This document shows positions 1,491 to 48,094 of a stretch of 64,000 nucleotides of DNA, in pieces; positions within the stretch are counted from its first letter, which is position 1; every line of letters starts with the position of its first letter. Location: NCBI GenBank assembly GCA_030647205.1, contig JAUSJO010000002.1, forward strand, positions 305,771 through 369,770. Direction: 5' to 3'. Both the position numbers and the translations under genes were made by a program. Below the pieces are notes generated by a model. That model made no database searches and was not told where the DNA came from. It was given only the letters and a program-made list of their open reading frames with translations. The stretch comes from a bacterium (lineage in GTDB: Bacteria > Patescibacteriota > CPR2 > UBA1875 > JAJYID01).

Positions 1491-1532
1491 GGGCCGAAAA
1501 AGATCGGCTCTTTTTCGGCCCTATTGATTTTT
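1491..1532. terminator. bidirectional rho-independent terminator (GGGCCGAAAAAG…CTTTTTCGGCCC plus T-run)
   Basis: Perfect 12-bp inverted repeat flanked by an A-run upstream and a T-run downstream. It lies between convergent genes. Confidence 0.7.
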
Positions 1533-1549
1533 TAACCTCTCCATAAATT

Positions 1550-1894
1550 TCAGGCAACAGTTTGGAGGGACAGGACACCATCACATACTTTTCGTTTGAC
1601 CAACTGGTATGGTGTCTCCAGCTTCTCACCAAAACAAGCCGAGGAGAATGTTGGCGGATAGAGGTCGGCGAAGTTGTATTCTTCACCATGAGCCAGATTA
1701 TCCAGTTCATCAAGGACTTCAGAGACTTTGTTCTGCTTCACGGCTTCACGATAGATGCTGATGACACAGACATCCATGGGGTAGAGGTCCTGGAAAAGTA
1801 TGAATGCTCTTTCCAGGTCTTTCCCAAAAGGTTCGCTAAACTCCCTTTCGAACTTGGTATATTCGCATATGTGGAATCCCGAAAGATCTTTCAT
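1550..1894 (-). CDS. hypothetical protein (114 aa)
   Basis: AAGGAAAGG RBS sits 8 nt upstream of the ATG on the minus strand. The composition is more protein-like than the overlapping + strand ORF, and it shares the terminator at 1491-1521. Confidence 0.4.
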   Translation of the reverse strand: MKDLSGFHICEYTKFEREFSEPFGKDLERAFILFQDLYPMDVCVISIYREAVKQNKVSEVLDELDNLAHGEEYNFADLYPPTFSSACFGEKLETPYQLVKRKVCDGVLSLQTVA

Positions 1895-1959
1895 GTGCGC
1901 TGCCTTTCCTTAGGTAGAAGTTTGGTAGAAATCCGAAGTATATTTTACAATATAAATGC

Positions 1960-2655
1960 TTAAGATTCAACCTTTTTACAAATGGCGTAGATGTTCCATT
2001 TGCTGTGCGCAATTTCTAAAATTTCAAAATCAGAGACTTTCAAATCTTTTTTAAGTCCATTCAATGTGTAGGCGAAATAATATCTTTCGGCTAGAACATT
2101 CCGGGCCGAATCCTTCCAAGGGATAAAAGTGTCTCCGAAATGTGTTTTCGATCTCTTAAAGACCATGTTAGACAGATTTTTCCAAATGTATTTTCTATAT
2201 TTTGGCTGCCAGAGGTTCCAGACTGTGATGAAAAGATGGCCGTTTTCTTTAAGGACGCGATTTGCTTCTGATAATGCCTCTAGTCGTAATTTTCTATTTG
2301 GCAAATGATGAAGTGAAGCGATAGAAAAAACCGCATCGAATTTGTCGTCGGGCAAACTCAGGCTTTCCATATTCATCATCTCGAACTTATTTTTTGGAAA
2401 TTTTTCACGGGCGATTTTAACTAGTCTATCCGAACTATCGATGCCAAGGTAATCAACTTTTTTCTCCGCCAATGAGTTTATAAGCCGGCCATTACCACAG
2501 CCGAGATCTAAAACGCTCCAACCGTCTTTCATATATTCCATGAATTTCTTCATTTCAGGCCACTCATAGTGCCTGGTACTAGCAAACTGGGCTGATATTT
2601 TGTTATAATCAGCTTTGGTCTTATCGGCGGATTTAATTGGATTTTTTTTATTCAT
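1960..2655 (-). CDS. Trm9/ALKBH8-like class I SAM-dependent methyltransferase (putative tRNA cm5U34 methyltransferase)
   Basis: Motif I LDLGCGNGRL is present, along with the Trm9-type N-terminus (ADYNKISAQFASTRHYEWP). The central block is DAVFSIASLHHL…ENGHLFITVWNLWQ and the C-terminal block is ERYYFAYTLNGL (Trm9 has RYYHxF…EL). The start is assumed at the MNKKNP methionine. Confidence 0.6.
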   Translation of the reverse strand: MNKKNPIKSADKTKADYNKISAQFASTRHYEWPEMKKFMEYMKDGWSVLDLGCGNGRLINSLAEKKVDYLGIDSSDRLVKIAREKFPKNKFEMMNMESLSLPDDKFDAVFSIASLHHLPNRKLRLEALSEANRVLKENGHLFITVWNLWQPKYRKYIWKNLSNMVFKRSKTHFGDTFIPWKDSARNVLAERYYFAYTLNGLKKDLKVSDFEILEIAHSKWNIYAICKKVES

Positions 2656-4207
2656 GGACAAAGCTTTAGAGAAAATTATTTTAAAAGCGAGGGATGGGCA
2701 AGTTTCTGACGAAGAAACTCTTTTAATCTTGATAAAAGACACTTTAAGAGGGCAGAACCTATCCGCTTTCCCTTCAAACATTATACTTAGAAAAACTTAT
2801 CGGGCAATGGTGAAAGCGGGGAAGATAGATCCAGACAAGGGTTTGGAAAATCTTTTAGTGACCAAAAAAATGCGCTCGCTTTCCGGAGTTGCCGTGATTA
2901 CGGTTCTCACCAAACCATGGCCGTGTCCGGGGGAGTGCCTGTACTGCCCGACGCAAGTTGACGTTCCGAAGAGCTATCTATCTTCGGAGCCTGCGGTAAT
3001 GCGGGCAATACTGTGTGACTATGATCCGTACAAACAGGTGCGGGCAAGACTAAACTCCCTGGAAATCGAGGGCCATCCGACTGACAAGGTTGAGTTAATT
3101 GTGATTGGCGGGACATTTTCAGCGTTACCAAAAGATTACCAGCAAGAGTATATAAAAAGATGCTTCGATGCGCTAAATAATTCTGTGGACAAGGATCTAG
3201 ACGATGCAAAAAATAAAAATGAAACGGCAAAGAACCGCTGTGTCGGGCTGACTCTTGAAACTCGCCCTGACTACATCACAAAAGAAGAAGTTGAGTGGTT
3301 TAGATACCTGGGGGCAACGAGAGTAGAGCTTGGTGTGCAGAGCGTGTTTGATGATGTCCTAAAATTCAATAAACGTGGGCATGATGTTGCCTCAACTGCT
3401 CGGGCGACAAAACTTCTTAAAGATGCGGGATTTAAAATCTGCTACCACATGATGCCAAATCTGCCCGGCTCTAACCTTGAAAAGGACATAGAAATGTTTA
3501 AAATCATCTTTACCGATCCGAGATTTCAGCCCGATTATATAAAAATCTATCCTTGTGTGGTGACAAAGGGTTCAGAGCTTTACGATATGTGGAAAGCCGG
3601 CGAATACAAACCATACTCTGACAAAGAGCTGGAGGATTTAATTTGTGAAATTAAAAAGGTAGTTCCATATTACGTTCGGATAATGCGACTAATCCGTGAT
3701 ATTCCTTCATCGGATATTGAGGCGGGGAGCAAAGTTTCAAACATGCGTCAAAATGTGCAAAGAAGGCTGGAGAAAGAGGGTGAAAAATGCAAGTGCATCC
3801 GTTGCCGGGAGGTAAGCAATAGAGTGACAGCCTTTGGCATTAAATTATTTAAAGAAGAATATGAAGCGAGCGGTGGGAAAGAGGTATTTCTTAGTTACGA
3901 GTCGGAGGATAGGGTGGTTTTGTATTCACTTCTAAGACTTCGGCTGACAAAAGATACTTTCATTTCAGAAATAAAAGATTGCGCACTGATTCGTGAACTC
4001 CATACTTATGGCCAGCAGATTAAAATCGGCAAAAGCGGAGATACTCAACATAAAGGTTTAGGTAAGAAGTTAATTTCAGAAGCAGAGGATATCGCCAGGA
4101 AAGATGGTTATAAAAAAATTGCCGTAATCTCGGGAGTTGGTGTTCGTGACTATTATAGAAAGTTTGGATATGGGCTAAAAGGTGAATATATGGTGAAGAG
4201 TATCTAG
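2654..4207 (+). CDS. elp3: Elp3-family radical SAM/GNAT protein (tRNA uridine-34 carboxymethyl/acetyl-transferase homolog)
   Basis: The Elp3 Fe-S motif CPGECLYCPTQ…SYLSSEPAVMRA is present. A radical SAM core is followed by a C-terminal GNAT domain (…HTYGQQIKIGKSGDTQHKGLGKKLI…GVRDYYRKFGY). A TGTTATAAT box lies at 2601-2609. Confidence 0.8.
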   Translation: MDKALEKIILKARDGQVSDEETLLILIKDTLRGQNLSAFPSNIILRKTYRAMVKAGKIDPDKGLENLLVTKKMRSLSGVAVITVLTKPWPCPGECLYCPTQVDVPKSYLSSEPAVMRAILCDYDPYKQVRARLNSLEIEGHPTDKVELIVIGGTFSALPKDYQQEYIKRCFDALNNSVDKDLDDAKNKNETAKNRCVGLTLETRPDYITKEEVEWFRYLGATRVELGVQSVFDDVLKFNKRGHDVASTARATKLLKDAGFKICYHMMPNLPGSNLEKDIEMFKIIFTDPRFQPDYIKIYPCVVTKGSELYDMWKAGEYKPYSDKELEDLICEIKKVVPYYVRIMRLIRDIPSSDIEAGSKVSNMRQNVQRRLEKEGEKCKCIRCREVSNRVTAFGIKLFKEEYEASGGKEVFLSYESEDRVVLYSLLRLRLTKDTFISEIKDCALIRELHTYGQQIKIGKSGDTQHKGLGKKLISEAEDIARKDGYKKIAVISGVGVRDYYRKFGYGLKGEYMVKSI

Positions 4208-4311
4208 GTCTTGAAAAAAAATGTTTTTATGTTATAATGAATTTGCGAGGGGTTTCTTTTTAAGAAGCTTTTTGTTTTTTGTACCTTAAATCTTTAGTGA
4301 GAGGAGGAATC

Positions 4312-4803
4312 ATGTTTTTTAGGCGCGGGAGAAAGAATGAAGAAAAACATGATACCGATAAAATAGACCAAATCATTGATCATGAGATCCAAAATGTTGA
4401 AGAGGTGGTAAAAAAGAAATCTGATGATTATCATGTTTGTCCCATGCCGGATTGCGAATCTGATTTTGTTTATTCGGTTGAAAGATACCAGATAAATGAT
4501 ACTGAGTGGAAAGTTCGCTTACTTTGTCCAAACTGTTGGAACCAAAGAACAGTGATAGTCGGTCGTGAAACGGTACGAAAGTTACTTGCGAGTGCTAGGG
4601 CGGGGCGCGAACGAATCATGAAGGATCTGGACCATATGCAGAAAAAGCATATGGAAGAGGAGGTCGAAAAGTTCATTACGGCTTTGCAAAAAGACTACAT
4701 CTTGCCTGATGACTTTACTCCTCCCTCAAGCACAAAGAAGAATGTTAATGAAGGTTGGATAAAGGACCTTGAAAGAGCGAGAGGTCTTCATTCCTCCAAA
4801 TAA
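4312..4803 (+). CDS. small zinc-ribbon protein, paralog 1 (CPxPDC…CPNC)
   Basis: GAGGAGG RBS precedes the ATG at 4312. Two Cys pairs are present, and the C-terminus is conserved with the 5022 ORF (…KKHMEEEVEKFITALQKDYILPDDF). A TGTTATAAT box lies at 4230-4238. Confidence 0.55.
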   Translation: MFFRRGRKNEEKHDTDKIDQIIDHEIQNVEEVVKKKSDDYHVCPMPDCESDFVYSVERYQINDTEWKVRLLCPNCWNQRTVIVGRETVRKLLASARAGRERIMKDLDHMQKKHMEEEVEKFITALQKDYILPDDFTPPSSTKKNVNEGWIKDLERARGLHSSK

Positions 4804-5021: not shown

Positions 5022-5336
5022 ATGGAGAAATTTTCGGAGCAAATAAACGAGTACCAAACATGTCTCTTTTGCGGATCGAATCTGGTATATCCCGTAGAAA
5101 GGACACAGCTAAACGAAAACGGATGGAAAGTAGCCGTTAGGTGCCCAAACTGTTTTGGCTTTCGAGTTGAATGTATGCATCGGGATGTGATGGTGGGGCT
5201 AATAAGGAATGCAAACAAGGGCCGCGAAGACCTCGCGAAAACGTTCAATCAAATGGCGAAAAAGACCATGGAAGAAGAATCTGACAAGATGATCTCAGCG
5301 CTTCATAGAGACCAGATCTTGCCAATAGATTTCTAA
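5022..5336 (+). CDS. small zinc-ribbon protein, paralog 2 (CLFC…CPNC)
   Basis: AGGAGG RBS is present, and the protein aligns end-to-end with the 4312 ORF (VERxQxNxxxWKVxxxCPNC…MEEE…ALxxDxILPxDF). A TGGTATAAT box lies upstream at 4887-4895. Confidence 0.6.
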   Translation: MEKFSEQINEYQTCLFCGSNLVYPVERTQLNENGWKVAVRCPNCFGFRVECMHRDVMVGLIRNANKGREDLAKTFNQMAKKTMEEESDKMISALHRDQILPIDF

Positions 5337-5419: not shown

Positions 5420-5749
5420 ATGACAGTTGATATTGGACAATCAAAGATAGAAGATCTGGCGGTTTGCCCCATCTGTCATTTCAAAACAGTAGTTGCCGAC
5501 TACTATCTCGAAGAGCAGGGTTCTTATACCATTCGTTGTCACTGTGACAACTGTGGTGAGGACTTCGGGAGAAACTACTTCACGCTCGATGAGGGGGTAG
5601 AAGCAATAAGGCTATATGGCAGAGATGAGTTCTATCGAGGGCCGACAAGAGTGGCCGAGGACGATTTCCTCAGAGACCTTAAACATCTGAGCGAAATGGA
5701 CAAAACGTCCACTCCGGTAACGATCGGAATGTTCCTAAAGGTTCCATGA
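5420..5749 (+). CDS. small zinc-ribbon protein, distant third member (CPICH…CDNC)
   Basis: AGGAGG RBS is present. A CxxC…CxxC ribbon is followed by an acidic DDFLRDL tail. Confidence 0.5.
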   Translation: MTVDIGQSKIEDLAVCPICHFKTVVADYYLEEQGSYTIRCHCDNCGEDFGRNYFTLDEGVEAIRLYGRDEFYRGPTRVAEDDFLRDLKHLSEMDKTSTPVTIGMFLKVP

Positions 5750-21419: not shown

Positions 21420-21853
21420 AAAAGTTTCATATGTTGACGAGCTGATGATTCCTTGGAGAAACTGAGTAATTTTTTTATTCATTACTATCTCCAGAAAACT
21501 CTTGCCGTTGAGGCAGAATTTCCCTATTATAGTAGTAATGTTTTAGCTTTAAACCTAAAGAATAATTTTTCGGGGGGCGATTGAAGTATAAAGAACGTAA
21601 GGTAAAGAGCACGAAAAGTAAGATTATAGCATACATAGCAAGGTGTTCGGCTTTTGTATGTAAAAATACTGAGCAGTCTTGTAGTTTAGCTAAGCACTCA
21701 TGGCTATGCCGTGAAAAGAAGGTAGTAGTCTTCCCTATTAGGGAGTTACTTAAGGTATTTTATTTCTTAAAAAATATATTTGTTCTCCTGCGTCTTGTTT
21801 ACTATGAACTGCTTTATTTCGCACACTTAAGGGTTAGATTCTTACATGATCAG

Positions 21854-24800
21854 ATGTATCAAGGTAATAAGACCTATAAAAAAGTAAATGATTTTAAGTA
21901 TACAAGGCCTATTCGCAAGGCAACAATCCTGGGGTTTGTTATATCGTTTTTCATTTTTCAGGTTATGGGAAGTCTCTGGCCGGAGATTTTTAACCCCGCC
22001 CACCCCAAGGTAGCAGAAGGCGGAAGCAACACTGTTACTTGGACGACAGATGCTGACTTTAACGCAGGCACTACTAAAAGCGGTGTTAAGGTTCAGAGTG
22101 ACAGTGTGACGCTAAATGATCCTGATATTATCCCTGAAGTAAAAGCGTCTGGGAATGACCTCTATGCCGTTCGCTTTTTGGATACTAATAATGGATACGC
22201 AGTTGGAATGAGCGGCCTTCTTTTAAAAACTATAGATGGCGGTGTCAACTGGTCAACAAAAAACCCGGGAACTAGTAATAATTTAAATGAAATTTATATA
22301 GTAGATGCTAACATATCTTATGTGGTGGGAGATGGCGGTGTCATTAGGAAAACGACAGACAGCGGAACGACATGGGCCACTCAAACTTCCGGAACAACAA
22401 ATAACTTAAATGGCGTTTACTTTACAGACGCAAACACCGGTTATGTGGTTGGAGATTCTGGAACAATCAAAAAAACCACAGATGGGGGTACAAACTGGGT
22501 TGCCCAGACTTCAGGGACAACCTATGCCTTTGAGGATATCTTTTTTGTCGGTGGTAGTACAGGATATGCTGCCGGATCAAACGGGTCTATATATAAAACT
22601 TTAGACGGAGGCACAAACTGGGTTATCCAGGCTACAGCAGCCGGTACTTCTTATAATTCAATATACTTCACAGACGCAAATACGGGTTATGCACCAGGTA
22701 ATATTGTTCTTAAAAAAACCACAGACGGAGGCACAAACTGGACCACCAACTACTCACTTAGCGGGAACACATGGTATGGGGTACACTTTGCTGACGCAAA
22801 TACTGGTTACGTGAGTGGTTCTAGTGGCAAGGTAAGAAAAACTATAAATTCGGGTACAAGCTGGACAGATCAGACTACGGGGTTTGGAGCGGGTAATGTT
22901 TATGACATTTACTTTACAGATGCTAATAACGGTTATGCAGTCGGGGCTAGCGGCAAGATTATAAAAACCACGAATGGCGGTGCAAACTGGACTTTGAAAA
23001 CTTTGAGTGTGACAGGTAACAACCTAAATAGTACTTACTTCACAGACTCAAATACCGGCTATGCAGTAGGGAACTCGGGCACTATCTTAAAAACTACAAA
23101 TGGTAGCGCGAGTTGGTCGGCCCTAACGTCTGGGACGTCAAGCGTCTTAAATGGTGTTTACTTTACGGATAACAATACTGGATACGCGGTTGGTGCAAGT
23201 GGTCTTATAAGGAAAACCACAGATGGGGGAGCGAACTGGGTTGCCCAGACTTCAGGGACAACCTATGCCTTATATGGCATACATTTTACAGATGCAAGTA
23301 CCGGGTATACAACGGGGGATAATGGGACGATATTAAAAACCACAGATGGGGGAGCGAACTGGGTTGCCCAGACTTCAGGGACGACGGGCTATTTTAGGGA
23401 CGTTTACTTCACAGATGCTAACACCGGCTTTCTTGCAGGAAGATACGGTATATACAAGACCACAAATGGGGGCACAAACTGGTCTTCAGTCTCTGGCTCT
23501 GATATCTATTTAAACAGCATGTATTTTACAGATGCAAATACCGGATATGCAGTCGGTAACAGTGGGACAATCATAAAAACCACAAATGGTGGTGCAAACT
23601 GGGCTGCCCAGACCTCAGGGACGACAAATCAGTTAAATAGTACTCATTTTACAAGTGCTAGCACTGGTTACATAGTTGGTGTTAACGGTACTATTCTTGA
23701 GACAAATGATGGGGGCACAAACTGGTCGTTGACGTCTGTGGGTACGTCTTTAAGTAGCGTTTATTTTACAGATGCTAACACCGGTTATGCAGTTGGTAGT
23801 ACTGGGTTTATTTTGAAGTTTTATCCTCAATATGCTACTTCGGGGGATATCTCTGGACTTAAGGTAGATGCAGGAGAAGGGGCAAAGGCGAACTGGTCTA
23901 GTATCACCAATAGCTCAACACTACTATCTAATACGTCAGTAAGTTTTCAGACAAGAGGCTCAGACGATAACTCTACTTGGTCCGGGTGGCAATCTCTAAG
24001 CGGTGAGACGATCCAAACTGCGGAGTATAGATATTTAGAAGTCAAAGCAACTTTGTCAACTTCTGACGGGCTACACACCCCATCGCTTAATGATCTTACG
24101 GTTACTTATGACAATCTCGAAGCCCCAGTAAATAGTAATATCACTTTAACAAAAACTGATGGTACGGCACTTAAAACAAGTGCGGGGGATGACCTGGCTG
24201 GCGGTGTAGCCGGAGGCTGGACAAATGCAACCACTGTTAGGTTAACGGCAACCGGCTTAACATGTGGGCAAGGAACTCCTGAAAATCCGACCTGTGGTTC
24301 AAGCTCGACAAACAGAAGACCTGAGGTTGAAATCAAAGAAATGGGAACTGTTTTTGATGGGGCTGTAACATATGAGGCAGTTAGTGGTAATAGCTATGTG
24401 GATGTGGCCTTGCCGGGGATTCCAGTCACAGGACAAGAATATCATATACGTGCAAGGAGTATTGACGATGAGGGCAAAGCGTCTGGATGGACTCAATATG
24501 CTAGCGATACTGCGGCTATTACGTATGATAATACTCCCGCAGGAGTATTTAATATCTCTACGCCCGCAGATAATAACTGGGGGACGGCAAGACCTACCTT
24601 TACTTGGGCTAGCACCTCTGATGCTAACTCTGGTATCAATAAATACCAGCTATACATAGATGGCGCACTAGATACCGACAATATTTCGGCGGTAGCCACT
24701 TCAGTTCAGGCAACAAACTCACTTATTGATGGAAGTCATACTTGGTATGTAAAGGCTGTCGATAATGCCGGTAATGCAAGGCAATCAACCAGTACATTTA

Positions 24801-27800
24801 CAGTCAATATAGACACTAGTGCACCGACATCATTCAACTTATCGACCCCGGCGAACAATTCATGGACAAACAACACTGGACCCACCCTGACATGGACAGC
24901 TTCTTCTGACCCGCATTCGGTCTTAGCAAAATACCAACTATATATCAACGGTAGCTTAAATAGAGACAACATTTCTTCAGTTGCTACCTCAACTACACCA
25001 ACAGGGTCTCAAACAGGAACATACTCATGGTATATAAAAGCAATAAATAATGCCGGCGGTGAGACAAATTCGGCGACCTATACTATCAACTATGACAACG
25101 CAGCCACATTCCCGTCACCTTTTGTAGCCAGCAGCAATGATGCGGAAAAGGTAGTCGTCTCATGGTCAGATCAAAATACAGGCGCTCCGACTGATACGTT
25201 CACAGTTCACAGGGTTAAGAAGTCAGAGTATGATAGTAACTCTTGGACAAAGGACAGTGATTGGAGTACAGGAACGGATTATGGCGTCTTTACAATTGCA
25301 GGAGGGGTTGGCGTCCTAAATGACAGTTCTCTTGGAGCGGTTCAAGGTCAGCCAATCATCTCTCAGTCGGTAAATTATGTCTACAAAATAAAATCAACGG
25401 ATACAGCTGGTAACGCATCCGGTTGGTCCAGCGTTGTTATCGGAAGAACAACCGATACAGCCGATCCTCAGGATCCATCTACCGTGACAGCAGTTGCTTG
25501 TGACGGAACGGCTCCGAACTGTTCAAACATTCTCAATAAGGGCTATGAAATCAAGCTGGCTTGGGCGGCCTCCAATGATTTTGGTTCAGGAGTGACCGGT
25601 TATAAAGTTTATAGAAATACGGCAAACTCTACAGATCCAAGTACATTTGCACTGGTCGGATATCTCGATGTACCAACACCGGGGGCTCCTGTTAGTACTG
25701 TCTACTATGATAATGACGCAAACAATGATAAACACGATTTCACTGACACTATAAATGAACAACAGGTAAGTATAAAAGCTGCCGCAACAGGGAGATTAAA
25801 TGATTACGTTAACTACTATTATAGGATAGTGGCGGTGGACGCTGTAGGAAACGAGACCAACATTATTACAACTGAAGGGCTAGGGTTACCAAACTACACT
25901 AACTATGCCACCGCAAGGACCCCTGACGTAACTTCTCCTTCGACCCCTCAGAATGTAGTTGTTACGCCTATGGGCCTTGACTCATCTGGTGGCGCTCAGC
26001 GAGTTGATGTTACCTGGAGTACTTCAACTGATATTACCAGTAGAAACGCAGGAGCAAGCGGTTCCGGGATTGCCGGATATAAAGTGATGCAATGTCAGGG
26101 TGACGGCACATTCTGTACTGATGATGGTAACTATAGTCAAATTGGTACAACATCCTCGACTAACTACACGAAAGAAGGCCTTGGAGAGTTCACTTGGTAT
26201 TACTATAAAATTATTGCTGTAGACAAGGCATCGTCAGCAACTATAACAGATACTTCTAATAACAGTTCAGCAAGAAGCTCATCGGCCTCAGTAAAAACAG
26301 CTTCAAATACAGTGCCAACGGTACCACTTTCCGTGAATGTAACGACAAAAACCGGTGATCCAAATACAGATAGCGATGTTGGTCATCAAAATACTGTTAC
26401 ATTTAACGGGTCATATGCCAAAAACTGTGCCGGTGGTGAACGCTGTGTTACGGGATACGAGATTTATCGCTCTACTGATAACTTTGCTTCAAGTTCGTTA
26501 AAAATTGCAGACGTTTCTATAGGTGCAGTTGGGGATGAAAGGAGTGTCACTTATACCTATATAGATAATAACTCGACGAACGATGCAACGGCGCCATCGA
26601 TTTCCAGAAGTTCAGGCGGAACTCCAGCTTTGAGTAAAGCACAAACCGCTCATTTGGTTGATGCAGCGACATATTATTATAAAGTGAAATCAAAAGACAA
26701 CACTCCAACAGTTCCCGACGGAGGACCATTTACTTCAGGCATGTCTTCGGTGGCTGTCGGTACTCTTCATGCTGGTTGGGATACAACCCCAGATGCAACA
26801 GATCCAGATGTCCCCCAAAGTGTAGCTGTAAAAAATATTCATCCAAATGACTCAATGGTTAGAAATATTATCACATGGACAATGATTCCGGATTCTACCA
26901 GAAACGGAACAAGTGACTTCTCAAAGTACCAGATCTATCGTTATGAGGTTCTGTTGGGCAGTGGTACGGCGACACTTATTGCAGAGAAAACTGATCGGGG
27001 AGATAACTATCATGTTGACGGGATTACAAACGGCCAAAAGGATAAAGATTATGCATATTATGTTGTAGCGGTAGACAATGCAGGGACAGACTTCAAATAT
27101 GCAAACGGGCAAATCATAAATCCTACATCCAACACGAGCAGCCATATAGCAACAGTTTCGATAAATCCTGGGGCAGTGAATCCTAGCGTATCAGGCACTA
27201 CAGTTGCGAGCACGGGCGTATCATCTGCTACTATAAACTGGTCTACGAACCAAGAGACAGATTCATTGGTAGAGTATAAGGTAAAAGATTCAAATGATGT
27301 GATTGCGGCAGGGAAAGACAGAACCCAACCGACAACAAGCCATTCTGTCTCCCTAGGAAACTTGAGCAAAGGTGTTGCTTACCAATATAGGATTGTCAGC
27401 CGTAACTCACTTGGTAATATTGATGAGTCTGCCGCAAATACATGGAAAGAGTTCTCAACCCAGGATTTTTATATATCAGATAATACTGTTTTGACCACTA
27501 CATCTACGGCGACTATAAGTTGGAACACAAACATCGACTCTGACTCATATGTGGAGTATAAACCGGAAGGATCATCAGAAAAGTATGAGGTTGCCGGTGA
27601 TGCTGTTCCGACGAAAAACCACGAGGTAACACTTAAGGGTTTGGTGCCGAACAGTCATTATACATATAATCTTCGTTCCGTCACTTCTGATAAATATATT
27701 GTTACAAAAAATCTCGATACCTTTAAAACCCGCGACAACGATCTCGATAAATTCAGAATTACACCGGGGGAAACCAATGTTTCGGAACAAAATATTACGG

Positions 27801-28726
27801 CGACTACAACTCAGATTACATGGACCACAACGGTTGCGACTACTTCATGGGTTGAGTATGGAACTGAGGTTGGAGTTTACTCGATGAGCGCCGGTGATAA
27901 TGATTTAAATACCCTGCATGCTGTTAAACTCACAAACTTGAGGCCAGGGACAAAGTACTTCTATAGAGTAAGGGGCAAAGATGAAAATGGTGTTGAACTC
28001 TTCTCGCCGGAATCATCATTTACTGCTATACTTATGCCCGAGATTTCAAACCTCAAAGTTAGAGACTTTAGCCCGTATACAGCAACGATTACATTTGATA
28101 CAAACGTTGAAACAGTTGTATCACTAAACTACGGCAAAGACACTAGCTATGGGTCAAGCGTGACTGTCGCAAAAGCGGAGAAAAATCACGTCATTACTCT
28201 TAAAGAACTTGACGATAACGCAACATATCATTTCCAGGCGTCTGCTACGGATCAGTTCAAAAACAATATTAAGTCTTCCGATATGATATTCTCAACCCCG
28301 CTTGATACCCAAGGACCGGAGGTGTCGGAGCTCAAAGTTGATGTTTTGCCTGTTTCTGACGCATCAGAGACAGCATCGGTTATCATTTCCTGGACAACAG
28401 ATAAGCCTGCAACAACGCAGGTGGAGTACGATGACAAGGGTGGCGGGGAAAAATATGAAAACCACACTATAGAAAACGCTACCTTAAATACGTCTCATAC
28501 GGTTTTGATCAAAGACCTAAATACATCGGCTAACTATAGATTTAGGATTATATCTAAGGATAAGAGAAATAATCTGACCAAAACGAAAGCTTCAAACTTT
28601 ATCACCCCGACAAAAGAAAAGTCACTGCTTCAGATAATTATAAAATCATTCGAAGATACATTTTCTTGGACAAAGAATGTTCCGCAGTTTTTTGGTAAAA
28701 TAGGAAATCGGCTAATGGGTCAATAG
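21854..28726 (+). CDS. giant cell-surface protein (2,291 aa): signal anchor, ~20 Ycf48/BNR-like Asp-box beta-propeller repeats, then Fn3-like and purple-acid-phosphatase-N-like domain arrays
   Basis: Repeats of type YAVGxSGxIxKTTDGGxNW(x)QTSGTT run from ~22150 to 23750. The remainder is Ser/Thr-rich. About six modules of type TxATISWxTNxxSDSxVEYxxxxS…YxYRxxS run from 26700 to 28500. The start is taken at ATG 21854 (MYQGNK…, followed by an anchor helix). The in-frame ORF extends upstream to 21581. Confidence 0.8.
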   Translation: MYQGNKTYKKVNDFKYTRPIRKATILGFVISFFIFQVMGSLWPEIFNPAHPKVAEGGSNTVTWTTDADFNAGTTKSGVKVQSDSVTLNDPDIIPEVKASGNDLYAVRFLDTNNGYAVGMSGLLLKTIDGGVNWSTKNPGTSNNLNEIYIVDANISYVVGDGGVIRKTTDSGTTWATQTSGTTNNLNGVYFTDANTGYVVGDSGTIKKTTDGGTNWVAQTSGTTYAFEDIFFVGGSTGYAAGSNGSIYKTLDGGTNWVIQATAAGTSYNSIYFTDANTGYAPGNIVLKKTTDGGTNWTTNYSLSGNTWYGVHFADANTGYVSGSSGKVRKTINSGTSWTDQTTGFGAGNVYDIYFTDANNGYAVGASGKIIKTTNGGANWTLKTLSVTGNNLNSTYFTDSNTGYAVGNSGTILKTTNGSASWSALTSGTSSVLNGVYFTDNNTGYAVGASGLIRKTTDGGANWVAQTSGTTYALYGIHFTDASTGYTTGDNGTILKTTDGGANWVAQTSGTTGYFRDVYFTDANTGFLAGRYGIYKTTNGGTNWSSVSGSDIYLNSMYFTDANTGYAVGNSGTIIKTTNGGANWAAQTSGTTNQLNSTHFTSASTGYIVGVNGTILETNDGGTNWSLTSVGTSLSSVYFTDANTGYAVGSTGFILKFYPQYATSGDISGLKVDAGEGAKANWSSITNSSTLLSNTSVSFQTRGSDDNSTWSGWQSLSGETIQTAEYRYLEVKATLSTSDGLHTPSLNDLTVTYDNLEAPVNSNITLTKTDGTALKTSAGDDLAGGVAGGWTNATTVRLTATGLTCGQGTPENPTCGSSSTNRRPEVEIKEMGTVFDGAVTYEAVSGNSYVDVALPGIPVTGQEYHIRARSIDDEGKASGWTQYASDTAAITYDNTPAGVFNISTPADNNWGTARPTFTWASTSDANSGINKYQLYIDGALDTDNISAVATSVQATNSLIDGSHTWYVKAVDNAGNARQSTSTFTVNIDTSAPTSFNLSTPANNSWTNNTGPTLTWTASSDPHSVLAKYQLYINGSLNRDNISSVATSTTPTGSQTGTYSWYIKAINNAGGETNSATYTINYDNAATFPSPFVASSNDAEKVVVSWSDQNTGAPTDTFTVHRVKKSEYDSNSWTKDSDWSTGTDYGVFTIAGGVGVLNDSSLGAVQGQPIISQSVNYVYKIKSTDTAGNASGWSSVVIGRTTDTADPQDPSTVTAVACDGTAPNCSNILNKGYEIKLAWAASNDFGSGVTGYKVYRNTANSTDPSTFALVGYLDVPTPGAPVSTVYYDNDANNDKHDFTDTINEQQVSIKAAATGRLNDYVNYYYRIVAVDAVGNETNIITTEGLGLPNYTNYATARTPDVTSPSTPQNVVVTPMGLDSSGGAQRVDVTWSTSTDITSRNAGASGSGIAGYKVMQCQGDGTFCTDDGNYSQIGTTSSTNYTKEGLGEFTWYYYKIIAVDKASSATITDTSNNSSARSSSASVKTASNTVPTVPLSVNVTTKTGDPNTDSDVGHQNTVTFNGSYAKNCAGGERCVTGYEIYRSTDNFASSSLKIADVSIGAVGDERSVTYTYIDNNSTNDATAPSISRSSGGTPALSKAQTAHLVDAATYYYKVKSKDNTPTVPDGGPFTSGMSSVAVGTLHAGWDTTPDATDPDVPQSVAVKNIHPNDSMVRNIITWTMIPDSTRNGTSDFSKYQIYRYEVLLGSGTATLIAEKTDRGDNYHVDGITNGQKDKDYAYYVVAVDNAGTDFKYANGQIINPTSNTSSHIATVSINPGAVNPSVSGTTVASTGVSSATINWSTNQETDSLVEYKVKDSNDVIAAGKDRTQPTTSHSVSLGNLSKGVAYQYRIVSRNSLGNIDESAANTWKEFSTQDFYISDNTVLTTTSTATISWNTNIDSDSYVEYKPEGSSEKYEVAGDAVPTKNHEVTLKGLVPNSHYTYNLRSVTSDKYIVTKNLDTFKTRDNDLDKFRITPGETNVSEQNITATTTQITWTTTVATTSWVEYGTEVGVYSMSAGDNDLNTLHAVKLTNLRPGTKYFYRVRGKDENGVELFSPESSFTAILMPEISNLKVRDFSPYTATITFDTNVETVVSLNYGKDTSYGSSVTVAKAEKNHVITLKELDDNATYHFQASATDQFKNNIKSSDMIFSTPLDTQGPEVSELKVDVLPVSDASETASVIISWTTDKPATTQVEYDDKGGGEKYENHTIENATLNTSHTVLIKDLNTSANYRFRIISKDKRNNLTKTKASNFITPTKEKSLLQIIIKSFEDTFSWTKNVPQFFGKIGNRLMGQ

Positions 28727-29162: not shown

Positions 29163-31673
29163 ATGGTATTTATTGTTTTAGGAGGGTGTTTTCTTTTATG
29201 TCTTTCGGGACTGGTGGTTTTGTATTTCTACAAAAAAACTAAGGCGTACAAAAAGCAGGTTGAAAGGTCTCTCAAAATTGTTCCTCTTAAAATAACAGTT
29301 CCCAGAGATCTTGGATCAAAGAATATGCAGGGCCAGACGCGTGACGACAGAGAAGCAGCGAAAGAGATTGTATCCTTTATGGAAACTTTTTATGCCAATC
29401 TCTCCACTATTTATAAAAGGGGTTTTAAGAATATTCACAGAAATTTTTTTTATGGTCAAAGGCACCTATCACTTGAAATTATTGCCAAGGACAGGGAAAT
29501 ATTCTTTTATATGGGGGTTCCGGTAATCTTAGTTGATATGGTTGAGAAAATGCTTTCTTCTCAGTATCCTGAAGCATTGATTGAAGAGTCAGAAGAACTG
29601 AATATTTTTTCCGAGGAATGGAAAGAGGTGGGAGTTTGCGGAGGAGAGCTGAAACTGCTAAAGAAATTTATTTATCCTATTAAAACATATAAAAACATTG
29701 ATTCTGAACCTTTGGAGTCTATAACAAATGCTTTAAGTAGAATGAGCCAAGGAGAGGGAGCAGCTATTCAGATGCTTATTCGCCCGGTCAGTGCAAGGAA
29801 GATGGGAGGTGGCCGCTCTGCCGTAAGAAAGTCACAAAACCAAAAAAACAGAGGTAGTATCGCAGGACAGATTATAGATGCGACACTGACAAACGGTCAA
29901 GGTTCTCAATCCCAAGAGCCGGTAAAACTTACGGCAATGGAAGAAGAGGTAAATAAGGCTATTGAAGAAAAGGCGGGGAAACCAGCATTTGAGACGATTA
30001 TCCGATTTGTTGTTTCAACTCAAACACCACATCGCAGCGAGATGATTTTAGCTGAACTCCAAAGTGCCTTTGCCCAGTTCAACGATCAAAATCTAAATGG
30101 TTTCAAATTTGTGAGAGAAAAAAACGTTGATAAACTTGTAACCGACTATATCTTCCGATTTTTTGAACATAAACTCTTTTCTTTAAATAGCGTTTTAGGA
30201 AATTTTCTCGGCCATAAAAGTATTTTAAATACCGAGGAGCTATCCAGCATATTCCACTTACCTAACTATTTGACGCCGTCCCCCGGTATCAATTGGCTCC
30301 CCGCAAAAATGGTTGAGCTTCCATTAAACATTCCACAAGAAGGAACCGTTATCGGTAAGGCTACATATAGAGGAGAGGAAAAAGTGATCCGAGTTTCAGA
30401 TGTTGATAAAAGAAGGCATGTTTATATCCTTGGACAAACCGGTACAGGTAAGTCAAACCTGATGAAGAACATGATAGTTGATGACATTATGCGGGGGAAA
30501 GGCGTTGCTTATATTGACCCGCATGGTCAGGATTTGGAAGATGTTATCAGTAAGATCCCCAAAGAGAGAGCGGAAGATGTAATAATTTTTGACGCCGGTG
30601 ATATTGAAAGGCCGATGGGGCTCAACATATTTGAGGCGGAAACAACCGAACAGAAAGATCTGGTGACAAACGAAGCGCTGGACATCTTGTATAGTTTGTA
30701 TGACCCTAACCATTCCGGCCAAATATTTGGGCCGCGTTTTGACCACTGGTTTAGGAACGCTGCCTTGACTTTGATGGCTGACCCGGCAGGAGGTACATTT
30801 ATAGAAATTCCAACCTTGTTTACTAACGAGAGGTTTTTAGCGGAAAAGTTAAAACATGTTGAAGACCCGATAGTTAGGAGCTTCTGGGTTGATGAGTTCG
30901 CAAATACATCGCAACAGGTTAAGTCTGAGATGTTAAGCTATTTCATCCCCAAGTTTGGTGCTTTCATGACCAATACCACCATGCGAAATATTATGGGTCA
31001 ACCCATTTCCTCATTAAAGTTGAGAGAGATTATGGATAACAAAAAGATACTGCTTGTAAACCTTTCTAAGGGTAGAATCGGCGAAAAAAACATGAAGCTT
31101 TTAGGAATGATTTTTGTTATAAAGCTTCAGGTGGCGGCTATGTCTAGGGCAGATGTTCCTGAGGATCAGAGACAGGACTTCACTCTTTATGTTGATGAGT
31201 TTCAAAACTTTCTTACTGAGTCATTTGCCCAGATACTTTCCGAGGCGCGAAAGTATAGATTTATCCTTGTTGTTGCGAACCAGTTTGTCGGGCAGTTGAC
31301 TGACGAGATCAGAACGGCCGTTTTTGGTAACGTTGGTACGGTGATGTCGTTCAGGGTTGGCCCCGAAGACGGCGAGTACATGGTAAAACAGTTTGAACCT
31401 GTTTTTAATGTTAACGATATGCTTAATATGGAAAATGGATACGCTGTAATAAGACTGATGATAAACGGATATCCATCCAGACCGTTTATAGTGAATCCTA
31501 CGTGGCCGCCTATAGGTGTGTCTAATCCGAAAGTTGGTGAAGCGATAAAGCAGCTTTCAAGACTTAAATATGCAAAACCAAAAGAAATTGTAGATCAAGA
31601 GGTTTTGAGCCGTATGCCGATACAAAGTGCTGGTTCTCAGGAAGCAAGTTCTGGTGATTTGCCAAGATCATAA
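29163..31673 (+). CDS. membrane-anchored VirD4/TraG/TraD-like (type IV coupling protein / FtsK-HerA superfamily) P-loop ATPase
   Basis: An N-terminal TM helix and a ~330-aa unique domain precede Walker A (ILGQTGTGKSNL), Walker B (LYVDEFQNF), and ANQFVGQL and MSFRVG motifs. Confidence 0.55.
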   Translation: MVFIVLGGCFLLCLSGLVVLYFYKKTKAYKKQVERSLKIVPLKITVPRDLGSKNMQGQTRDDREAAKEIVSFMETFYANLSTIYKRGFKNIHRNFFYGQRHLSLEIIAKDREIFFYMGVPVILVDMVEKMLSSQYPEALIEESEELNIFSEEWKEVGVCGGELKLLKKFIYPIKTYKNIDSEPLESITNALSRMSQGEGAAIQMLIRPVSARKMGGGRSAVRKSQNQKNRGSIAGQIIDATLTNGQGSQSQEPVKLTAMEEEVNKAIEEKAGKPAFETIIRFVVSTQTPHRSEMILAELQSAFAQFNDQNLNGFKFVREKNVDKLVTDYIFRFFEHKLFSLNSVLGNFLGHKSILNTEELSSIFHLPNYLTPSPGINWLPAKMVELPLNIPQEGTVIGKATYRGEEKVIRVSDVDKRRHVYILGQTGTGKSNLMKNMIVDDIMRGKGVAYIDPHGQDLEDVISKIPKERAEDVIIFDAGDIERPMGLNIFEAETTEQKDLVTNEALDILYSLYDPNHSGQIFGPRFDHWFRNAALTLMADPAGGTFIEIPTLFTNERFLAEKLKHVEDPIVRSFWVDEFANTSQQVKSEMLSYFIPKFGAFMTNTTMRNIMGQPISSLKLREIMDNKKILLVNLSKGRIGEKNMKLLGMIFVIKLQVAAMSRADVPEDQRQDFTLYVDEFQNFLTESFAQILSEARKYRFILVVANQFVGQLTDEIRTAVFGNVGTVMSFRVGPEDGEYMVKQFEPVFNVNDMLNMENGYAVIRLMINGYPSRPFIVNPTWPPIGVSNPKVGEAIKQLSRLKYAKPKEIVDQEVLSRMPIQSAGSQEASSGDLPRS

Positions 31674-31826: not shown

Positions 31827-33917
<2,091 letters not shown>

Positions 33918-33930
33918 GGAGTCATAAAAA

Positions 33931-34461
33931 ATGAAAGAATTTACTAACACGCTAGAAGATTTTCAAGAGGAAGGAGTCAAAATGCCAAAAGAACAAGGAA
34001 TACATAAAGTCTCTGTTGAGGAAAACATTGATGAATTATTTGCACTTGACTCAAAAGTTGCGGAAGCCAGTCCGCATTTATTGCCGCTAGAAACACCAGA
34101 AGAACTATCGGATTTCTTAACAAAAGAGCATCAAAGTGATACGTATATTTTCAATAATGAGGAAGGGTTAGCCGGCTATCTTTCAGTAATAGACATCCCT
34201 GATGAGAATGCCCTTGAAGTTTTGAATATAGGAGTTGATCCAAAATTTCAAGGCGAGGGTTATGGAAAAAAGATGATGCTTTTTGCTGAAGAGATTGCGA
34301 AAGAAAACAAAAAACAAAAAATGAAGTTGGTTACGAATGTTAAAAATGATCCAGCTGTTCAGTTTTATAAAAGACTTGGTTATGCTGTTATCAAAGAAGC
34401 AGAAAATTATTACGGTGATGGCGAGACAAGATATATATTAGAAAAGAATTTGGACGTATAA
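33931..34461 (+). CDS. GNAT family N-acetyltransferase
   Basis: The acetyl-CoA binding motif [17 protein letters not shown] is present. It sits between gyrB and gyrA. Confidence 0.7.
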
Positions 34462-34463
34462 AA

Positions 34464-37229
34464 ATGGCAGACGAAGAAATAAGAGATTTAAATCAAATAG
34501 GAAAAATTGAGGCTCGTGACATCAACGATGAAATGCAGGAGAGCTTTCTTAGCTATGCGATGAGTGTTATTGTTGCTCGAGCACTTCCTGATGTCCGCGA
34601 TGGTATGAAGCCGGTACACAGAAGGATCCTCTATGCGATGGATAAGCTTGGGGTCCGCTCAACGGCTAGATACAAAAAATCAGCAAACATAGTCGGTGAA
34701 GTTTTGGGTAAATATCACCCTCATGGTGATACGGCCGTGTATGAAACCATGGTGAGAATGGCTCAGGAGTGGACATTTAGGTACATGCTCGTTGATGGTC
34801 AGGGAAACTTCGGTTCTATGGATGGCGACTCTGCAGCTGCTTATCGTTATACAGAAGCCAAGATGACGAAGATTTCCGAAGAGCTTTTAGCGGATATCGA
34901 TAAAGATACAATCGATTTTGTGCCGAACTACGACGGTTCGCTGAAAGAGCCGCAAGTATTGCCGGCAAAACTACCAAATCTGCTCTTGAACGGTCAGATT
35001 GGTATTGCTGTTGGTATGGCAACCTCTATCCCGCCGCACAACCTAAACGAACTAGTCGATGCTGTTGGTGAGCTTATAGATAATCCGGATGCAACGATCG
35101 AAGACTTGATCCAGCATGTTAAGGGTCCTGACTTCCCGACAGGTGGTATTATTTACAATACTGATGATATAAAGAACGCCTACGCTACGGGTCGCGGAAA
35201 GATTGTCATTCGCGCCGTTGCCGAGATTGAAGAAAAGAAGAAGGGCGGCTTTAGAATAGTCGTCACTGAGGTGCCATATCAGGTAAACAAGGCAACTTTG
35301 ATTGAAAAAATCGCCGATTTAGTGAAGGAAAAGAGGATACTAGGTATCAGTGATCTTCGGGATGAGTCTGACAGAAATGGTGTCAGGATTGTGGTTGAGC
35401 TTAAAAGGGATGCCCATCCAAACAAGATTTTAAACCAGCTTTTCAAGAAGACGCAGTTGCAGTCGTCTTTCCATGTCAACATGATTGCTCTTGTTGATGG
35501 TCTCCAGCCGAGAATCCTGACGTTGAAAAACGTACTAGAAGAGTTTATAAAACATAGATTTCAAGTTGTTACTCGAAGGACAGAGTTCGAACTTGCTAAG
35601 GCTAAGGCGCGAGCACATATCTTAGAAGGACTTCTTATCGCCTTAAAGAGAATTGATGAAGTTATTGAGACTATCAAAAAGTCGAAGGATAAGGATGTTG
35701 CCAGGGTTAACCTGATGAAGAAATTCAAACTGACGGAAATCCAAGCCCAAGCAATTCTAGATATGAGACTTCAGCAGCTTGCCGGTCTTGAGAGACAGAA
35801 AATCCAAGATGAATATGATGCCCTCCAGAAGCTAATCGCGGAGCTTGAAGATATCCTTGCTCATCCAAAGAAAATTTATGGAATTATCAAAGATGAACTT
35901 GCCGAAATGAAAGAAAAGTATGGTGACGAGAGAAGGACACAGGTGGTAAAAACCGGCATTGGCGACTTTTCCGACAAAGACCTTATTCCGAATGAAGAAG
36001 TGATCGTAACGATGACTAAGGGCAACTACATAAAGAGTATCCCCGTTTCCACTTATCGCGTCCAACAGCGCGGAGGCAAGGGCGTGGTTGGCATGAAAAC
36101 CAAAGAAGAAGACCTTGTAACCCACATGATATTTACAAAGAATCATGATAATATTTTGTTCTTCACAAACAAAGGTCGAGTATTCCAGACGCTTGTGTAT
36201 GAGCTGCCAGTAGCTTCTCGAATAGCCAAGGGTCAGCCGATAGTAAATGTCCTCCAACTGGCACCAGAAGAGGTTGTGACGGCTATTATCAATGTTCCTG
36301 ACCAGAAAGAGAACAAATATCTGATGATGGCGACAAAGAAAGGAACCATAAAGAAAACTCCACTGGATAGCTTCTTGAATATCAGAAAAACGGGTATTAT
36401 CGCCATTGGTCTTGATAAAAATGATGAACTCAAATGGGTAAAAATGACAGATGGCGCAAGCGATATAATACTTGCAACCAAGAATTCATTGGCTATCAGA
36501 TTTAATGAAAAAGATGTCCGTCCGATGGGCAGATCAGCTCGCGGAGTACGCGGAATCAGACTAAAATCAGACGATGAAGTAGTCGGAATGGATCCGATAG
36601 TTCCAGACGGAGAGTTGCTGGTTGTTATGGAAAATGGATATGGAAAGAGAACAAAGCTTGAGCAGTTTACTTCACATAGGCGGGGCGGTATTGGTATAAA
36701 AGCTGGCGTTGTAACAAAGAAAACCGGACGAACAGTTGATGTTCGGGTGATCTCGGGCGACAACAATGATCTAGTTGTAGTTTCCAGAAATGGGGTTATT
36801 ATCAGAACGCCGCTCGCTAAAATTTCAAAGATCGGTCGCGCGACTCAAGGTGTCAGAATTATGAGAATTGATGAAAGCGATAGGGTTGCGTCAGTGGCTT
36901 GTATCGAAGAAAGAGAAGAAGAAAGCAACCAGCAAGAGATTCCTCTAGACATAGATTCTACTCCAAAGACAGAAAGACAAGACCCAAAAAATGATAAATC
37001 AGAGCAAAAAGAAATTGTCAAAACTGTGACAAAAAAAGAGCCGACTTCTCAAAAACCTGTAGCTCAAAAAAGTCCAAAAGTGAAAACTGCGACTCCAAAA
37101 ACTATCACTAAAAAAACGGCTAAATCAGATGTTGCTTTCAAGAAAACGGCTGTAAAATCTACTGTCAAAAAGAGTAAAGATTCGGCCGCTGGTTTCAAAA
37201 GAACTCAAGTGAAACCCAAGAAAAAATAA
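34464..37229 (+). CDS. gyrA: DNA gyrase subunit A with ~110-aa Lys/Thr/Ser-rich C-terminal extension
   Basis: The catalytic region ([28 protein letters not shown]…) is followed by GyrA-box-type beta-pinwheel repeats. The tail reads [27 protein letters not shown]…KPKKK. Confidence 0.92.
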
Positions 37230-42906: not shown

Positions 42907-43126
42907 ATCTATTAGTATTTCAGTACAAAAAAAGGAGGGGTAACAAATCTGGAAATTCCAATGCTTGGGATAGACAGAGCAGTATTATTTTGTGCGTTAA
43001 AAATACTAACAGATGAATGGGACCTTGAAAATCGAAAAGTAGAGAAAATTTAAATCACGTCAATGTAAATCTTGAGTAATTTATTACTCATAAACTTTTA
43101 GGAAATTTTTTAAAATTTCCATTTTT

Positions 43127-44579
<1,453 letters not shown>

Positions 44580-44806
44580 AGGGAGATATCCCATTCAATT
44601 GGGACTACTTCCAGGTTGAGTCCCGCACATATTTTGCATTATGTTTAAGCAGTTAAAGATAGTGTGGAATATGTGCGGGGTTAGTGATATAAGTTTTTCT
44701 CTACTTTCCGGGCTTCAAGGTCATAACAAAAAGATTGATTTTCAAGGTAAAAACGGTTAAAATATTGAAGTTAAAACCGTTTTTATTTGTTTTAATGTAT
44801 TGATTG

Positions 44807-44883
<77 letters not shown>

Positions 44884-44899
44884 AAGAAAGGAGGTAGGA

Positions 44900-45118
44900 A
44901 TGAGTTTCATCCTAAGGCTTTTTATTAGTCTTGTTGCCGGAGGAATAGGCTTGGTTTTGTTAGTAAAAACCAGAAGAGTTGTCCATCAAGTTGGGTATAT
45001 AAACTGGGCAGAACAGCATCTTGGAGGAGGCGGCACTTATATACTAATAAAGTTTCTTGGCTTACTGGTTATGGTGATAGCAGTTTTTTTCTTGCTAGGT
45101 GTCATAAAAATTTTCTAG
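44900..45118 (+). CDS. small two-TM membrane protein (72 aa) encoded between tRNA-Ile and tRNA-Ala
   Basis: A strong SD (AAAGGAGGT) lies 5 nt ahead of the ATG. Two hydrophobic helices are present. Confidence 0.4.
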   Translation: MSFILRLFISLVAGGIGLVLLVKTRRVVHQVGYINWAEQHLGGGGTYILIKFLGLLVMVIAVFFLLGVIKIF

Positions 45119-45180
45119 TTTTTCGACTGTCATAGTTTATTGTTAGCAATTCGTATTGTATATTAAGTTTAATATGTCAT

Positions 45181-48087: not shown

Positions 48088-48094
48088 TATAGTT

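Follow-up and report, generated by a model that had tools for sequence, protein, structure and literature searches.

In eukaryotes, wobble uridines (U34) of tRNA are converted to 5-methoxycarbonylmethyluridine (mcm5U) or its 2-thiolated form (mcm5s2U) by the Elongator complex together with a methyltransferase, Trm9-Trm112 or ALKBH8-TRMT112. The same two enzyme families, with the same predicted chemistry and with the tested catalytic residues kept, are encoded side by side in a bacterial genome, in a 64,000-nucleotide (nt) stretch of a Patescibacteriota assembly (GenBank GCA_030647205.1, contig JAUSJO010000002.1, positions 305,771 to 369,770 of the forward strand). This whole stretch is referred to here as the window. 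Its positions 2654..4207 on the + strand hold the gene for a 517-amino-acid (aa) Elp3, a radical S-adenosylmethionine (SAM) enzyme with a Gcn5-related N-acetyltransferase/lysine acetyltransferase (GNAT/KAT) domain, and positions 1960..2655 on the - strand hold that for a 231-aa Trm9-like class I SAM-dependent methyltransferase. The locus differs from the eukaryotic system in several respects. As in other prokaryotes, counterparts of Elp1, Elp2 and Elp4-6 are presumably missing, the window Elp3 carries a zinc-binding linker of three cysteines that is absent from eukaryotes, and the two genes are physically paired. Trm112 is not evident, and the surface that would contact it is polar. The Fe-S motif of yeast Elp3 has the form CX9CX2C, as opposed to CX3CX2C in the window Elp3.

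In archaea too, a stand-alone Elp3 acts ahead of a Trm9 orthologue. In Haloferax volcanii (HVO_1032/Trm112), Trm9-Trm112 makes mcm5U (PMC6144793), and in the archaeon Sulfolobus solfataricus the genes for Elp3 and Trm9 are clustered (PMC2584109). The present locus differs from these systems in that its host is a bacterium, in that archaeal Trm9 requires Trm112, and in its zero-spacer divergent geometry, which is without an archaeal description. Another close relative is the bacterial stand-alone Elp3 of Dehalococcoides mccartyi (DmcElp3), which has the same domain layout, a glutamate at the Q461/E386 position and the three zinc cysteines; the N-terminal extension of the window Elp3 is longer, at ~70 aa, and resembles that of archaeal Elp3. 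DmcElp3 was labelled 'a rare example of bacterial Elp3s' in 2019, and a 2026 account spoke of Elp3 in 'numerous bacteria'. The DmcElp3 literature searched discusses no follow-up methyltransferase, and at the one Chloroflexota locus sampled (L028) Elp3 has no Trm9-like neighbour and an AsnB-like gene lies nearby instead.

Two other bacterial pathways act on the same nucleotide. MnmE-MnmG(-MnmC), which produces 5-carboxymethylaminomethyluridine and 5-methylaminomethyluridine (cmnm5U/mnm5U), has the same role, equipping U34 of split-box tRNAs with an xm5 side chain, but relies on unrelated enzymes and different cofactors (GTP, FAD, methylene-tetrahydrofolate and glycine) and yields a different product. 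In the CmoA/CmoB/CmoM pathway of Gammaproteobacteria, which leads to 5-methoxycarbonylmethoxyuridine (mcmo5U34), CmoM is likewise a class I methyltransferase that esterifies a side-chain carboxylate on U34. It resembles the window methyltransferase at the level of the fold, including the N-terminal helix (hhalign 95.9%), but its substrate differs, being the oxyacetic acid side chain supplied by CmoB.

The Elp3 gene extends from the ATG at 2654 to the TAG at 4205-4207. Over residues 11-516 of 517 its product matches the curated NCBI model TIGR01211 with 616.9 bits (cutoff 350), and it contains the Pfam domains Radical_SAM, Radical_SAM_C and Acetyltransf_1 (GNAT, residues 463-506). The top matches in the PDB are end to end, to Methanocaldococcus infernus Elp3 (MinElp3; 6ia8, E 5.6e-144) and to DmcElp3 (5l7j, E 2.8e-135). 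Structures of eukaryotic Elongator subunit 3 also align end to end (about E 1e-116), and the proteins nearest to the window Elp3 in this sequence search are archaeal. The Fe-S cysteines C91, C95 and C98 lie in CPGECLYCP, and their CX3CX2C spacing recurs at 44 of 53 related Elp3 loci, with Thermoplasmata-type archaea having CX4CX2C instead. Four MinElp3 positions, K150, K266, Q461 (E386 in DmcElp3) and Y517, are required for acetyl-CoA binding and hydrolysis (Lin et al., PMC6367351); in the alignment to 6ia8 they correspond to K145, K261, E448 and Y500 of the window protein. The Q/RxxGxG acetyl-CoA loop is kept as QHKGLGKKL (residues 465-473), and zinc cysteines C379, C381 and C384 (CKCIRC), located in a linker between domains that is of the prokaryotic type, align with MinElp3 C384-C389. 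No tested radical-SAM, zinc or acetyl-CoA residue is missing, and the gene encodes a complete Elp3. The original prediction, which had named an Elp3 homolog from the CPGECLYCP motif and a C-terminal GNAT domain, is thus borne out by motif and domain, by the model score and by the key radical-SAM and KAT residues.

The divergent gene starts at an ATG complementary to 2653-2655 and stops at a TAA complementary to 1960-1962. Pfam assigns its product to generic class I domains only (Methyltransf_11, 79 bits), but more specific comparisons converge on Trm9. The best PDB match by phmmer is Yarrowia lipolytica Trm9 (YlTrm9; 5cm2_Z, E 1.1e-21, 81 bits, residues 25-228), and the next match has 50 bits. 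When a profile of 40 family members is compared with solved structures, Trm9 scores 103.6 bits over positions 25-226 and other methyltransferases reach at most 77 bits, most of these matches covering the SAM-binding core only. An AlphaFold2 model of the protein (mean confidence, pLDDT, 92.5) retrieves 5cm2_Z first in Foldseek, with E 2.8e-19 and a template-modelling (TM) score of 0.86, normalised to the target. As a control, the second class I methyltransferase encoded in the window (62434-63195) gives no Trm9 match at E 1e-3.

Residues that are essential in yeast Trm9 (ScTrm9) are kept as well. Mutagenesis identified eight positions, R29, D72, H116, W145, W168, R241, Y243 and N271, each of which is required, since alanine mutants at these residues inactivate the yeast enzyme (Létoquart et al., PMC4678810). 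All eight are present in the window protein, and their conservation across 40 homologues ranges from 78 to 100%. R29 corresponds to R28, the acidic SAM-binding residue D72 to D73, W145 to W146 and R241 to R191, each found in 40/40 homologues; H116 and W168 correspond to H117 and W180 (38/40 each), N271 to N221 (35/40) and Y243 to Y193 (31/40). The motifs on which a Trm9/ALKBH8-type enzyme had first been proposed, DYNKISAQFASTR, LDLGCGNG and ERYYFAY, are also present. Sequence comparison, profile, fold and essential residues agree with that proposal, and the divergent gene is best described as Trm9-like rather than UbiE-like. Its conserved head-to-head linkage with Elp3, described below, gives independent support to a Trm9 role.

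Other named methyltransferase families were considered and set aside. The highest-scoring named NCBIfam model, DVU_1556, reaches 65.9 bits against a cutoff of 155, followed by UbiE (55.7 against 216), the MenG/UbiE subfamily (53.1 against 158), BioC (46.3 against 185) and CmoB (31.3 against 209). BLASTP against Escherichia coli CmoM returns 22.7 bits over 37 residues that comprise the SAM motif only, and the catalytic residues of Trm9 are absent from CmoM. In public databases some members of the family are named 'UbiE' or 'class I SAM-dependent methyltransferase', and a few IMG entries carry the automatic names 'TRM9' or 'ALKBH8'.

The pairing of the two genes extends far beyond this genome. 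Fifty-six Elp3 loci, one genome per GTDB species, were searched with the window methyltransferase, and 36 bacterial loci had usable upstream DNA. At 32 of these 36 the same methyltransferase gene lies divergently and immediately upstream of an Elp3 that shares 45-77% identity with that of the window; none of the archaeal Elp3 loci sampled has this methyltransferase as a neighbour. Since the head-to-head arrangement recurs in 32 independent genomes, it is far beyond chance. The association also shows when the methyltransferase is taken as the starting point: of six distant homologues (37-43% identity) on long contigs, five adjoin a divergent gene for a protein of 529-570 aa with Radical_SAM and Radical_SAM_C domains, and at the sixth locus an uncalled gap with a GNAT fragment stands at the position of Elp3. 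In related genomes Elp3 does adjoin a Trm9-like gene, and the view that such a cassette is unusual in bacteria stands for model bacteria but not within Patescibacteria, where it is the norm. A search of the available literature library found no paper that ties Elp3 or Trm9 to the candidate phyla radiation (CPR)/Patescibacteria, and none on an Elp3-Trm9 cassette in bacteria. The pair apparently constitutes an undescribed extension of a known pathway, with two traits that are possibly new: independence from Trm112 and a locked head-to-head architecture.

Four bacterial loci depart from the rule. L054 and the Anaerolineae locus L028 have an asparagine-synthetase-like gene, discussed below. In the other two, a tyrosine recombinase gene immediately precedes Elp3 and reads in the same direction (L020:1601-2428 and L029:1285-2109, both +), joined in L020 by a transposase-like gene, which suggests insertion of a mobile element at the junction of the pair. 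At one distant Patescibacteria locus, a gene for a PP-loop protein resembling ThiI/tRNA_Me_trans overlaps the methyltransferase stop codon (L105:4274-5194, +), giving the order Elp3, divergent methyltransferase, putative thiouridylase, a layout that fits an xm5s2U34 pathway.

The geometry of the pair is extreme. Both start codons lie within the palindrome CATG at 2653..2656, so that the genes overlap head to head by 2 nt on opposite strands. This overlap, noted in the original prediction, can be read directly from the DNA, and homologues support both starts: relatives of Elp3 at L001, L003, L005, L009 and L054 align from residue 1, and 224-239-aa relatives of the methyltransferase cover 96-99% of the query, including its N-terminal block. 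Longer mechanical open reading frames (ORFs), starting at TTG 2615 and ATG 2781, are unsupported by alignments of homologues. A public call of the identical methyltransferase (P0001) begins at M35 and comprises 197 aa, dropping a conserved N-terminal helix that bears Y17 and R28. This call looks too short and mis-called, probably by a gene caller avoiding the head-to-head overlap.

Start codons at the related loci were picked by homology, a heuristic that gave start-to-start distances for all 32 loci with the pair. In 23 of them the start codons are at most 23 nt apart. The identical CATG overlap (-2 nt) occurs in seven (L001, L003, L010, L013, L015, L030 and L053), one locus each has -6 nt and 0, and five have +1 nt in the form CATAATG. 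Nine others have distances of 3, 3, 5, 5, 6, 15, 16, 20 and 23 nt, and the remaining nine range from 91 to 761 nt. Other divergent gene pairs are 42-339 nt apart in the window and about 120-630 nt apart in the annotated related loci. Of the types of overlap between prokaryotic genes, the head-to-head one is generally the least common. The identity of the two genes, the conservation of their residues, their linkage and their geometry are what these data show.

The pathway that best accounts for the pair is one in which Elp3 makes 5-carboxymethyluridine (cm5U34) and the Trm9 orthologue esterifies it to mcm5U34, and on the comparisons above this reading is probably correct. Like its archaeal and Dehalococcoides counterparts, Elp3 would work on its own: with SAM, a reduced [4Fe-4S] cluster and acetyl-CoA, its radical domain and its KAT domain would together place a carboxymethyl group on C5 of U34. 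The divergently encoded Trm9 orthologue would then methylate the carboxylate of cm5U in a SAM-dependent reaction, probably without a Trm112 partner; with a 2-thiolase also at work, mcm5s2U34 would result. The chemistry and the tRNA substrates of this scheme are extrapolated from characterised homologues, as are Trm112 independence and the positions of promoters. The near-zero spacer locks the genes together physically and may couple their expression. Neither mnmE nor mnmG is present within the 64-kb window. If the proposal is true, mcm5-type wobble uridines are not limited to eukaryotes and some archaea but extend through a huge radiation of bacteria, one already noted for its odd, pared-down translation machinery. 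mcm5U would thereby enter the domain Bacteria, and, more speculatively, a whole superphylum could use the archaeal/eukaryotic route and not MnmEG.

Several points weigh against this proposal. mcm5U is not known from bacterial tRNA. The window methyltransferase shares just 28% identity with Trm9 (5cm2_Z), and the Foldseek margin of Trm9 over anonymous class I methyltransferases is modest (E 2.8e-19 as compared with 4.8e-17). Two of the eight essential positions vary within the family, Y193 (ScY243) in 9/40 and N221 (ScN271) in 5/40 homologues. The assignment to Trm9 was made by pairwise, profile, fold and residue comparison, and the libraries of hidden Markov models used contain no curated Trm9 model. 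All characterised Trm9 enzymes, from yeast, human (ALKBH8) and H. volcanii, depend on Trm112 (PMC4678810; PMC6144793). Finally, yeast trm9 mutants accumulate 5-carbamoylmethyluridine (ncm5U) and not cm5U (PMC3110198), which leaves the substrate order of the pathway unsettled.

In a rival reading, the methyltransferase is tied to Elp3 but does not make mcm5U, acting instead on another atom of the Elp3 product, another tRNA position, another carboxylated wobble base (as CmoM does on cmo5U) or Elp3 itself. The class I methyltransferase fold is promiscuous, the lead of the Trm9 match over uncharacterised methyltransferases in Foldseek is small, the hhalign match to E. coli CmoM (95.9% probability) extends to the N-terminal 'xxIAxxFS' block, and Trm112 was not found in the window or at ~60 loci. 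CmoM, however, lacks the HH, W146, W180 and R-Y-Y residues of the active site and scores only 22.7 bits in BLASTP, and models of the CmoB type are far under cutoff. Moreover, R29, H116, R241, Y243 and N271 of ScTrm9, which are proposed to grip the carboxylate of cm5U and its uracil ring, all have their counterparts here. A different methylation target is accordingly considered unlikely, and esterification of cm5U remains the preferred reading.

The proposed pathway could also be right in outline while its methyltransferase depends on a Trm112 encoded elsewhere in the genome, making a three-gene module. Every characterised Trm9 requires this activator (PMC4678810; PMC6144793). Proteins of the Trm112 family do exist in bacteria, such as E. 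coli YcaR, and the view of the present genome covers 64 kb only. The contact surface, however, argues against such a partner. In YlTrm9, Trm112 buries a hydrophobic patch around strand beta3 formed by V59, F78, V102, A110, P112 and F116. The equivalents of V59, F78 and V102 in the window methyltransferase are S47, D68 and E92, and among the 40 homologues these positions are mostly K/R/T/S, D/N/K and K/E/Q, so that polar or charged residues occupy three of the six core contacts, both in the window protein and in the majority of these homologues. Searches with E. coli YcaR and with a Trm112 motif found no Trm112/YcaR homologue in the 64-kb window or within ~6 kb of the pair at ~60 loci, and the zinc-ribbon genes beside Elp3 are not Trm112-like. 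The polar surface and the absence of a Trm112-like ORF near the pair suggest that the methyltransferase works without Trm112, and a three-gene module is given little credence. If stand-alone action is true, the locus would offer a Trm9 that by nature needs no Trm112, and a compact module of two genes, easily expressed for tests of tRNA hand-over from Elp3 to Trm9.

That the adjacency is meaningless, a generic UbiE-like methyltransferase lying beside a horizontally acquired Elp3 or an archaeal contaminant of the assembly or bin, might be suggested by the 'UbiE' and 'class I SAM-dependent methyltransferase' names of some family members and by the archaeal affinity of Elp3, but this is highly improbable and is effectively refuted by synteny, given that the pair occurs at 32/36 bacterial loci over 45-77% Elp3 identity and at none of the archaeal loci, that the UbiE/MenG models, with cutoffs of 158-216, give only 53-56 bits, that the pair does not differ from its flanks in G+C content, and that the contig also carries a 16S rRNA and housekeeping genes of bacterial type. 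The close relatives of both genes all come from metagenome-assembled genomes labelled Patescibacteria, Parcubacteria or Saccharibacteria. Because the G+C content of the pair equals that of its flanks, and because its neighbours, the genes for PK, PyrG and a SprT-like protein, are syntenic among relatives, the pair is native to the genome and is no recent island. A horizontal island and contamination are both ruled out by these two lines of evidence.

A spacer close to zero implies that each promoter lies inside the coding sequence of the other gene or that the mRNAs are leaderless. The two genes of the proposed pathway would thus each be transcribed from a promoter in the first codons of the other, or as a leaderless or near-leaderless mRNA. 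Placement within the opposing gene, as the original prediction had it, follows logically from this geometry and is here a predicted arrangement; candidate sites are found on both strands. For Elp3, an extended -10-like element, TGTTATAAT (2601..2609, +), ends 44 nt upstream of the ATG, within methyltransferase codons D16-Y17-N18. TATAAT stands at the same offset before Elp3 in L003, L010, L013 and L015, and nearby in others. This recurrence may reflect only protein conservation and A+T-rich codon use, as TATAAT is the reverse complement of the conserved D-Y-N codons, which explain it equally well. For the methyltransferase, a promoter-like TTGCCC-16-TATAAT (2780..2807, -; 10/12 matches) lies inside Elp3 codons ~125 nt upstream of the ATG, and a TAAAAT is closer, ending 22 nt ahead of the start. 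Eight sigma-70-like sites occur in 1500-4500 compared with 6.1 expected from shuffles, a number not above chance, so the TTGCCC-16-TATAAT site alone is no evidence of a promoter. The conserved head-to-head arrangement is a clean natural setting in which to learn how promoters operate within coding sequence and how divergent genes are coupled.

At the other end of Elp3, a terminator-like hairpin followed by a T-run (4245..4275, +) lies 3' of the stop codon, and a strong promoter-like site (4211-4238, +) precedes the next gene. These two features suggest that Elp3 is transcribed alone and not together with the genes downstream of it. The latter encode three small tandem paralogous Cys4 zinc-ribbon proteins (4279-4803, 5022-5336 and 5420-5749, all +), homologues of which follow Elp3 in L001, L002, L054 and L058, only the closest relatives. 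An AlphaFold2 model (pLDDT 80) shows a three-stranded zinc ribbon and one long helix, for which Foldseek returned only the zinc ribbon of NrdR (E 0.04). The paralogues were considered as substitutes for Trm112 and rejected, having no Pfam or PDB sequence match and a fold of zinc ribbon plus long helix. Two of the three end in ILPxDF.

In a few relatives the position next to Elp3 is occupied by a different enzyme. In L054 and L058/L059, which have syntenic flanks and an Elp3 71-76% identical to that of the window, a 260-aa protein stands in for the methyltransferase. It consists of an asparagine-synthetase (PP-loop) domain without a glutaminase domain (L054:5226-6008, +; L058:5001-5780, +; and L059). 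Its gene and Elp3 overlap by 8 nt, stop codon against start, an arrangement in which the two would be translationally coupled. The protein matches PF00733 with 123 bits, falls under all NCBIfam cutoffs and finds its best PDB match in the C-terminal domain of AsnB. A 38% identical homologue is encoded ~650 bp from Elp3 in Anaerolineae (L028:4446-5237, -), and another is divergent to Elp3 in L065 (~590-1318). At about 40 more distant, archaeal-looking loci of this family Elp3 is missing from the surrounding 5 kb, and the genes that recur nearby offer no obvious hint of tRNA modification; only a few bacterial lineages thus associate AsnB-like proteins with Elp3.

This replacement bears on an old gap in the pathway, since the enzyme that forms ncm5U has been reported as unknown in the literature for two decades. 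In AsnB-type chemistry, a carboxylate is adenylated and then attacked by ammonia. Because conversion of cm5U to ncm5U needs precisely such amidation of a carboxylate via an adenylate, the AsnB-like protein is a possible candidate for a cm5U-to-ncm5U (or nitrile) amidotransferase; by analogy with QueC, a second round would yield the nitrile 5-cyanomethyluridine (cnm5U). The position upstream of Elp3 might then be an interchangeable slot for the second step, filled by Trm9 for mcm5U in most Patescibacteria and by the AsnB-like protein for ncm5U in close relatives of the window organism, an idea that is offered tentatively and is more doubtful than the mcm5U pathway itself. The AsnB-like gene beside Elp3 represents a concrete, testable candidate for the missing ncm5U-forming enzyme, on evidence that is thin and comes from loci outside the window.

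The remainder of the window includes genes for the housekeeping proteins PyrG, PheS/PheT, GyrB/GyrA and BipA, and a bacterial 16S rRNA gene at 43123-44577 with tRNA-Ile(GAU) and tRNA-Ala(UGC) downstream. On the far side of the methyltransferase, ~500 bp (1460-1960) separate its stop codon from a membrane-protein gene (498-1460) and may be non-coding; the only ORFs there, 1550-1894 (-) and 1562-1963 (+), overlap each other and have no Pfam match and no homologue in related loci. A likely surface protein of 2381 aa, with BNR/Ycf48-like repeats and with immunoglobulin-like and fibronectin-III domains, is encoded at 21581-28726 (+) and is followed by an 836-aa ORF without a Pfam match (29163-31673, +). 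At 48050-50924 (+), a 295-aa radical-SAM ORF overlaps ~200 nt of the start of a 731-aa ORF, which has a weak IucA/IucC-like match, and the assignment of start codons there is uncertain. Between gyrB (31863-33917) and gyrA (34464-37229) lies a gene for a 176-aa GNAT acetyltransferase (33931-34461, +). The rRNA operon is split (43123-47852): after the 16S rRNA, tRNA-Ile(GAU) and tRNA-Ala(UGC) genes comes a gene for a P-type cation ATPase (45375-47852) and not the 23S rRNA.

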